From the NCBI RefSeq assembly GCF_003018255.1, contig NZ_CP027440.1: 64,000 nt of DNA, one strand, 5' to 3'. The stretch comes from Escherichia coli (GTDB taxonomy: Bacteria > Pseudomonadota > Gammaproteobacteria > Enterobacterales > Enterobacteriaceae). Below, piece by piece: positions 30,495 to 30,663 of the stretch (position 1 is its first letter; every line of letters starts with the position of its first letter). The notes beneath the pieces were generated by a model. It had not been told where the DNA came from. It did no database searches and worked only from the letters and a program-made list of their open reading frames with translations. The translations under genes and the position numbers were made by a program.

Positions 30495-30663
30495 GCCATC
30501 ATCGCAATAGATGGAAAAGCACTCCTGCTCTTTTTTGATTAGAGCCGTGGCAGAGGAACAACTCATATCATCATTGCGATCTCGACAATGTATAGTCTGA
30601 TCCTTCGGCAGATCAAGACGGATAAAAAATCCAATGAGTTCACACTCATCCCGAACTTCTTAA
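30495..30663 (+). mobile_element. Degenerate remnant of an ISAs1-family (H-repeat) transposase gene
   Basis: In-frame translation [56 protein letters not shown] resembles the AIDGKTLR… and …QIKTDEKSNEITAIPELL… segments of ISAs1/H-repeat transposases as I recall them; interrupted by stops. Confidence 0.45.

Follow-up and report, generated by a model that had tools for sequence, protein, structure and literature searches.

A decayed H-repeat remnant closes the rhsA island of Escherichia coli next to yibH

Introduction

Which element left the broken transposase-like reading frame found beside yibH, at the distal edge of an rhs locus of Escherichia coli, and did this element once bound the locus? 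Since the 1990s, H-repeats have been known to accompany Rhs elements. At the corresponding place of the K-12 MG1655 chromosome lies yibU, described in EcoGene and EcoCyc as an H repeat-associated, RhsA-linked pseudogene. The association of H-repeats with Rhs is noted in a review, according to which their transposition was never observed (PMC3032704).

An earlier note, made from the letters of a 64-kb stretch of E. coli DNA (contig NZ_CP027440.1, hereafter the window), had read positions 30495-30663 as a decayed ISAs1/H-repeat transposase fragment, and perhaps as the scar left by a former boundary element of the rhs locus. The feature itself is not new: it is annotated as the pseudogene yibU, and its IS family is well known. 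What is added here is a full map of its two pieces, including the right terminus of the IS 5 nt from the yibH stop codon, the ancestral fuller state found in other Escherichia genomes, and the finding that one relic closes both rhs-type and vgrG-type islands at a single hotspot.

Homology to the H-repeat transposase

The reading frame with its in-frame stop is present as it had been quoted, in frame +1 from 30330. When the intact ISEc1 transposase YdcC (378 aa, locus L004) was compared with the whole window by tblastn, a single significant match was obtained, in which residues 96-160 align with positions 30471-30665 at 57% identity (E=4e-18). At the nucleotide level, blastn of 30469-30700 gave 82% identity to ybfD (E=3e-61) and 79% to ISEc1 (E=5e-53). 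A DNA profile built from six H-repeat copies (K-12 and other) and run with nhmmer matched over model positions 430-663 (E=4.4e-50), which was its sole match in the 64 kb. The frame-repaired translation scored 66.9 bits (E=1.7e-18) against NCBIfam NF033564 (transpos_ISAs1), a value expected for an 83-aa fragment, the 70-bit cutoff being meant for the whole protein. The match to Pfam DDE_Tnp_1 is weak (19.5 bits for a 23-bit cutoff). Membership of the H-repeat group is seen in the nucleotide homology, which is collinear and in one orientation, with 79-82% identity between the relic and every intact or partial E. coli copy seen. Translated and nucleotide searches, which the earlier note had itself proposed as a test, are thus strongly positive, and the range it gave falls inside a larger relic (Table 1).

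The element family of the relic is that of the K-12 H-repeats (ISEc1), namely yhhI (RhsB), ydcC (RhsE) and ybfL/ybfD/ybfQ (RhsC). These share its orientation and its place, downstream at the distal edge of the Rhs element, as observed for rhsB (yhhI), rhsE (ydcC, yncI) and rhsC (ybfQ/ybfL/ybfD). The relic differs from them by a divergence of 18-21%, by the lack of an intact ORF and by having kept a single decayed end. Defective tandem H-repeat copies are also found at RhsC, so defectiveness is not unusual.

Anatomy of the relic

Table 1. Features of the rhsA island and of the relic at its right edge (window positions).
Feature	Position	Strand	Basis or remark
Whole rhsA island	24612..30764	.	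Comparison with empty-site strains, in which yibF abuts yibH
Weak Tlde1-like toxin remnant preceding the Imm57 gene	29507-29782	.	Tlde1_dom E=1e-3, under cutoff
Orphan Imm57-family immunity gene, yibV orthologue	29787..30308	+	Pfam Imm57 E=3.8e-44; annotation
AT-rich spacer from Imm57 to the relic	30309..30468	+	No H-repeat homology
Piece A: H-repeat nt 430-663, transposase codons 95-173	30469..30700	+	blastn, nhmmer, tblastn, codon mapping
In-frame TAG nonsense codon (AAG Lys in intact H-repeat)	30540..30542	+	Also in K-12 and MOD1-EC7003 alleles
First single-base deletion relative to intact H-repeat, frameshift	30652..30653	+	Common to window, K-12 and MOD1-EC7003 alleles
Second single-base deletion relative to intact H-repeat	30680..30681	+	Common to window, K-12 and MOD1-EC7003 alleles
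Linker across the ~570-bp internal deletion junction, 21 nt	30701..30721	+	MAFFT placement
Piece B: last 38 nt of H-repeat (nt 1254-1291)	30722..30759	+	Four-right-end alignment, shuffle test
Five-C run between H-repeat terminus and yibH stop codon	30760..30764	.	Missing from empty sites
yibH (HlyD-family), first core gene right of the island	30765..31901	-	Stop codon 30765-30767

Piece A spans the AIDGK region, with the first catalytic D, and the ITADE region, with the second D. Piece B aligns without gaps with the H-repeat end at 25 of 38 positions, seven of the 13 mismatches being G->A; its score was equalled by none of 1000 shuffles compared with the last 60 nt, and by one of 200 compared with the whole element. 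Within it lie the stop codon of the transposase, TAA (30747-30749), and the terminal inverted repeat of the right end. When four H-repeat copies are aligned, their common sequence extends up to ...CGTAATCTTGCCCTG and diverges beyond; the K-12 yhhI copy measures 1291 bp from CAGGG to CCCTG. The right terminus at 30759 lies 5 nt from the yibH stop codon. As to the linker between the two pieces, it may represent a continuation of H-repeat nt 664-683, through a match that is not statistically significant, and a collinear extension of piece A past 30700 into H-repeat nt 518-600 was not significant either (p ~0.23).

On the left side, the relic stops at a breakpoint (30468|30469), where H-repeat nt 1-429 have been replaced; the spacer 30309-30468 was compared with all parts of the H-repeat, and no homology was found. 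The remaining element thus amounts to 232 nt plus 38 nt, 79% being lost. No intact ORF of ~378 aa with a complete DDE triad is present: codons 95-173 and the last few codons are left, interrupted by the TAG stop and two frameshifts, and the catalytic-E region is deleted. Of the terminal inverted repeats, the right one is retained, with ~10/15 positions identical to the terminal repeat; the left end is missing from the window and present in a sister allele (L032). With one decayed end and no ORF, the feature is a relic and not a live IS element.

The right edge of the rhsA island

The annotated gene order in the window is selB-selA-yibF-[rhs gene, frameshifted]-hypothetical-Imm57-yibH-yibI-mtlA, and the stretch 29700-31000 is 100% identical in E. 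coli JNE23-011. The counterpart interval in K-12 MG1655 reads rhsA-yibA-yibJ-yibG-yibS-yibW-yibV-yibU-yibH. The limits of the island can be read from empty sites. In Nissle 1917, where yibF directly adjoins yibH, the window is matched up to 24611 and again from 30764. The empty-site spacer between the two genes measures 32 nt, lacks the C-run and is kept in genera ranging from Escherichia to Citrobacter; the junction between island and core falls within the C-run, to within 1 nt. Since the right end of the H-repeat is followed only by this C-run up to the yibH stop codon, the relic is the very edge of the island, of which it is the last recognisable component. The distal position proposed for it is therefore confirmed, and the idea of a scar left by a bounding element is directly supported by the right H-repeat terminus, which is kept at the island junction.

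The K-12 pseudogene yibU (b4652), annotated between yibV and yibH, is orthologous to the relic. Its positions 3769948-3770146 correspond to window 30471-30668, with the same TAG and the same flanks, at 93.5% identity; the K-12 allele differs by one extra inserted base. The annotation covers the first reading-frame stretch only, without the frameshifted continuation to 30700 and without 30722-30759. The distal block conserved between the window and K-12 extends over 29552-31000.

The main rhs gene (24803-28950) is apparently frameshifted near its 5' end (ORF 24803-25141, then 24916-28950 in another frame), and PGAP labels the rhs gene of the identical strain JNE23-011 'frameshifted'. The C-terminal toxin tip of Rhs and the following 136-aa ORF (window 28524-29551) are unrelated to the K-12 RhsA tip and yibA. 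The toxin tip gives a sub-threshold match to Peptidase_M91; the 136-aa ORF (29008-29418), without Pfam match, is presumably the immunity gene. Elsewhere in the window, 14215-14711 resembles the 3' part of yibH (73% identity) and probably represents its paralogue yiaV, the yiaV-yiaW pair mirroring yibH-yibI.

Fuller sister copies in vgrG-type islands

One genome per species was scanned for the yibH C-terminal coding pattern, and the H-repeat profile was run on the loci found. In Escherichia sp. MOD1-EC7003 (L032), H-repeat positions 5-662 stand directly before yibH, so that this copy has the left end and the first 429 nt of the element. Once aligned, the MOD1-EC7003, window and K-12 sequences agree in the TAG, in both 1-base deletions, in the internal deletion, in piece B and in the C-run junction. 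The same fuller structure occurs in four complete E. coli genomes (RMDEC465, MFDS1022581, MFDS1019527 and N96). These five fuller relics are 90-92% identical to the window over 30468-30763; they keep H-repeat nt 5-429, whereas the window relic lacks them, and their left flank is other island DNA. The relic is sometimes named 'ISAs1 family transposase', pseudogene, by PGAP (H156). These copies, which show identical lesions at the identical junction but still have the left end, directly support the view of the fragment as the scar of a bounding element.

The surroundings differ between the two forms. The fuller relics belong to a vgrG/T6SS-effector island, beside a muramidase/immunity pair, whereas the window relic belongs to an rhs/Imm57 island. 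Besides two further H-repeat copies, the 16.5-kb island that the fuller relic closes in RMDEC465 contains vgrG genes and pairs of effector and immunity genes (M35 peptidase, GH19, S-type pyocin, muramidase), but no rhs gene. When it is compared with the window island, nothing is common to the two except yibF, the initial 147 nt (24612-24758) and the sequence rightwards from 30468. Since the same lesions are found in both island types, they predate the split between these types. H-repeats had been presented as companions of rhs loci: for the relic this holds as to its place at the distal edge of an rhs island, but not as an rhs-specific association, since it also closes a T6SS effector island of the vgrG type that lacks any rhs gene.

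Within the RMDEC465 island, three H-repeat copies are interspersed with the successive GH19, S-type pyocin and muramidase cassettes (L039 9127-15816; compare L032 1-2288); two of these copies are truncated, and the third is full-length with an internal stop. This suggests that cassette boundaries of T6SS effector islands, and not those of Rhs elements alone, are marked or mediated by H-repeats. A shared breakpoint between the left edge of the window relic (H-repeat nt 430) and the truncated middle copy of RMDEC465, which ends at ~nt 420-426, was considered and rejected: the two breakpoints lie ~9 nt apart in different structures, and their proximity is a coincidence.

Among complete E. coli genomes, the relic is found at at least 90% identity in ~3,700 of 5,426 (305 + 52 + 3,350), that is ~68%, and a count of the genomes covering at least 80% of 29700-31000 agrees (3,662). 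Most other E. coli genomes have an empty site or another island. ISAs1-like places are common, with a median of ~5 per genome, and an ISEc1-like 3' half joined to yibH was found in 0 of the 5,426; the fuller copies keep the left half.

Decay and tests for a present function

Mismatches between the relic and ISEc1 are distributed as 18/10/19 over codon positions 1/2/3, compared with 5/5/32 between the intact-type copies ybfD and ISEc1. Such an even distribution indicates neutral decay, as do the predominance of G->A among the mismatches of piece B and the additional base inserted in K-12. Between the window and K-12, identity is 93.5% for piece A, 94.4% for the spacer, 93.3% for Imm57 and 98.4% for yibH, the divergence of piece A being ~4x that of yibH. 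The longest exact matches of the relic to live H-repeats are of 15-19 nt, which would be too short for efficient homologous recombination.

Searches for functional signals were negative. An Rfam scan of 29000-32500 at E<=1 gave no match, a terminator scan gave no terminator-like site, and promoter-like matches are not clearly over those of shuffled sequences (9 for 5.5±2.4). Folding of the strands downstream of yibH and of Imm57 showed no excess stability (z +0.6 and +1.4). With a minimum length of 30 aa, the relic has a single ORF, of 33 aa, which ends at the TAG.

Two observations deserve mention. The segment formed by the linker and piece B (30701-30763) is identical at 62 of 63 positions in the window, K-12 and MOD1-EC7003, compared with 90-94% for piece A; a rough Poisson estimate from the piece A rates gives p ~0.02-0.09 for this small sample. 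Weak constraint on this segment, perhaps through the 3' end of yibH, may be involved, or else its linkage to that gene. Besides, in the sole relevant paper found on yibU, a genomic SELEX study, an RpoD-holoenzyme site ('constitutive promoter', TTAACT-15-GATAAT) is placed between yibV and yibU of K-12 (PMC3946193). The TTAACT...GATAAT hexamers are found in the window at 30360-30389, in the AT-rich spacer, so the relic, which lies downstream of this site, may be transcribed. Neither observation indicates a function.

Origin of the relic

It can be held with high confidence that the relic is the non-functional remnant of an ISAs1-family IS, the 1291-bp H-repeat, which once stood complete at the right edge of the yibF-yibH island. 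This complete H-repeat ended, on the right, 5 nt short of the yibH stop codon. It then lost ~570 bp internally and gained the TAG stop and the two 1-base deletions. These lesions are common to all carriers examined, and thus ancestral. In islands of the rhsA type (window, K-12), the orphan Tlde1-remnant/Imm57 block later took the place of H-repeat nt 1-429, and with them of the left inverted repeat and codons 1-94. Neutral drift would have followed, and the relic would today be no more than a spacer on the downstream side of Imm57 and yibH, two convergent genes. It should not allow the production of any transposase, since the N-terminus and the catalytic-E region are missing and the frame is broken, nor should it be mobilisable, with a single decayed end left. 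Judging from its longest exact match of 19 nt, it is probably too diverged from live H-repeats to recombine with them.

Several other origins have been weighed. That AT-rich intergenic DNA should resemble transposase motifs by chance has nothing but the short length of the match in its favour; this reading is refuted by the significance of the homology (E=4e-18 for the protein, 4e-50 for the DNA profile and 1.7e-18 for NCBIfam), and its probability is practically nil. Recent truncation of an active K-12-type H-repeat (ISEc1) is suggested by the abundance of ISEc1 copies in E. coli, with the median of ~5 ISAs1-like places mentioned above. However, the relic is just 79-82% identical to every E. 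coli copy seen, and these identity figures refute the idea of a young relic; moreover, its lesions are common to alleles that are 6-10% diverged from each other, and none of the 5,426 genomes joins an ISEc1-like 3' half to yibH. Such a recent event looks extremely improbable.

It could also be argued that no IS ever stood here, and that the fragment arrived already truncated, together with the orphan toxin/Imm57 cassette, from another Rhs locus. In both the window and K-12, the relic indeed accompanies the Imm57 block, within the conserved distal block, and K-12 has H-repeats downstream of rhsB, rhsC and rhsE. We nevertheless judge this very unlikely, because RMDEC465 and MOD1-EC7003 have the relic, with the same lesions and the same yibH junction, without Imm57 or rhs gene; there it reaches leftwards to the H-repeat left end, and the homology between island types starts exactly at the relic (30468), not within the Imm57 block. 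The last alternative is a host function taken on by the relic, as a yibH 3' UTR or terminator, a promoter, a small RNA or a short peptide. The unusual conservation of 30701-30763, the RpoD SELEX site upstream and the retention of the relic in ~68% of complete E. coli genomes would fit with such a role. It appears improbable, though, in view of the lack of any Rfam match, terminator-like hairpin or excess folding energy, of the ~4x faster divergence of piece A relative to yibH with uniform codon positions, and of the one third of E. coli strains that have an intact yibH without the relic.

The yibF-yibH hotspot

As an ordinary pseudogene in the best-studied bacterial genome, the relic of a once complete H-repeat is of little importance in itself. 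It nevertheless gives a useful point of reference for tracing the assembly and swapping of T6SS effector islands at this site. The yibF-yibH intergenic site is an island hotspot (loci L005, L006, L023, L029, L039/L040). In E. coli it is occupied by the rhsA island, by the 16.5-kb vgrG/T6SS-effector island of RMDEC465, or by an S6-peptidase and fimbrial island (UPEC-455U), and in Citrobacter by an Rhs island (sp. Res13) or a 7-kb island (sp. MGH106). All these islands abut the yibH stop codon exactly. On the left side, 24612-24758 is common to the rhsA-type island and to that of RMDEC465, of the vgrG type, and lies in a match of 98.6% identity; the genes coming after it differ. This left segment and the relic form a common 'frame' of the two island types.

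It is tempting to see in this fixed frame the borders of a T6SS-effector exchange hotspot, in which H-repeats would have served as portable homology for the shuffling of effector/immunity cassettes among islands of the rhs and vgrG types. What is observed is the common frame and the architecture punctuated by H-repeats; mediation of the exchanges by H-repeats goes beyond this, and we consider this extension rather unlikely. If it were true, the H-repeats of islands like that of RMDEC465 may still serve in shuffling, and the yibU relic would mark the oldest exchange point.

Two further loci bear traces beside yibH. The UPEC-455U island (L006 ~11995-12011), in which no H-repeat is detectable, ends in GCCCCTTCCCCC before the yibH stop codon. 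This end matches the last 11 nt of the window island (30754-30764) at 10/11 positions, and may thus keep the extreme tip alone of the same relic, the match being too short to carry weight. In Pseudocitrobacter faecalis (L013 3122-3713), scrambled H-repeat pieces (model 599-858, then 269-463) stand directly beside the yibH stop codon. Their pieces, breakpoints and lesions are other than those described here, so they are not the same relic; this debris probably derives from an independent H-repeat insertion at the same spot.
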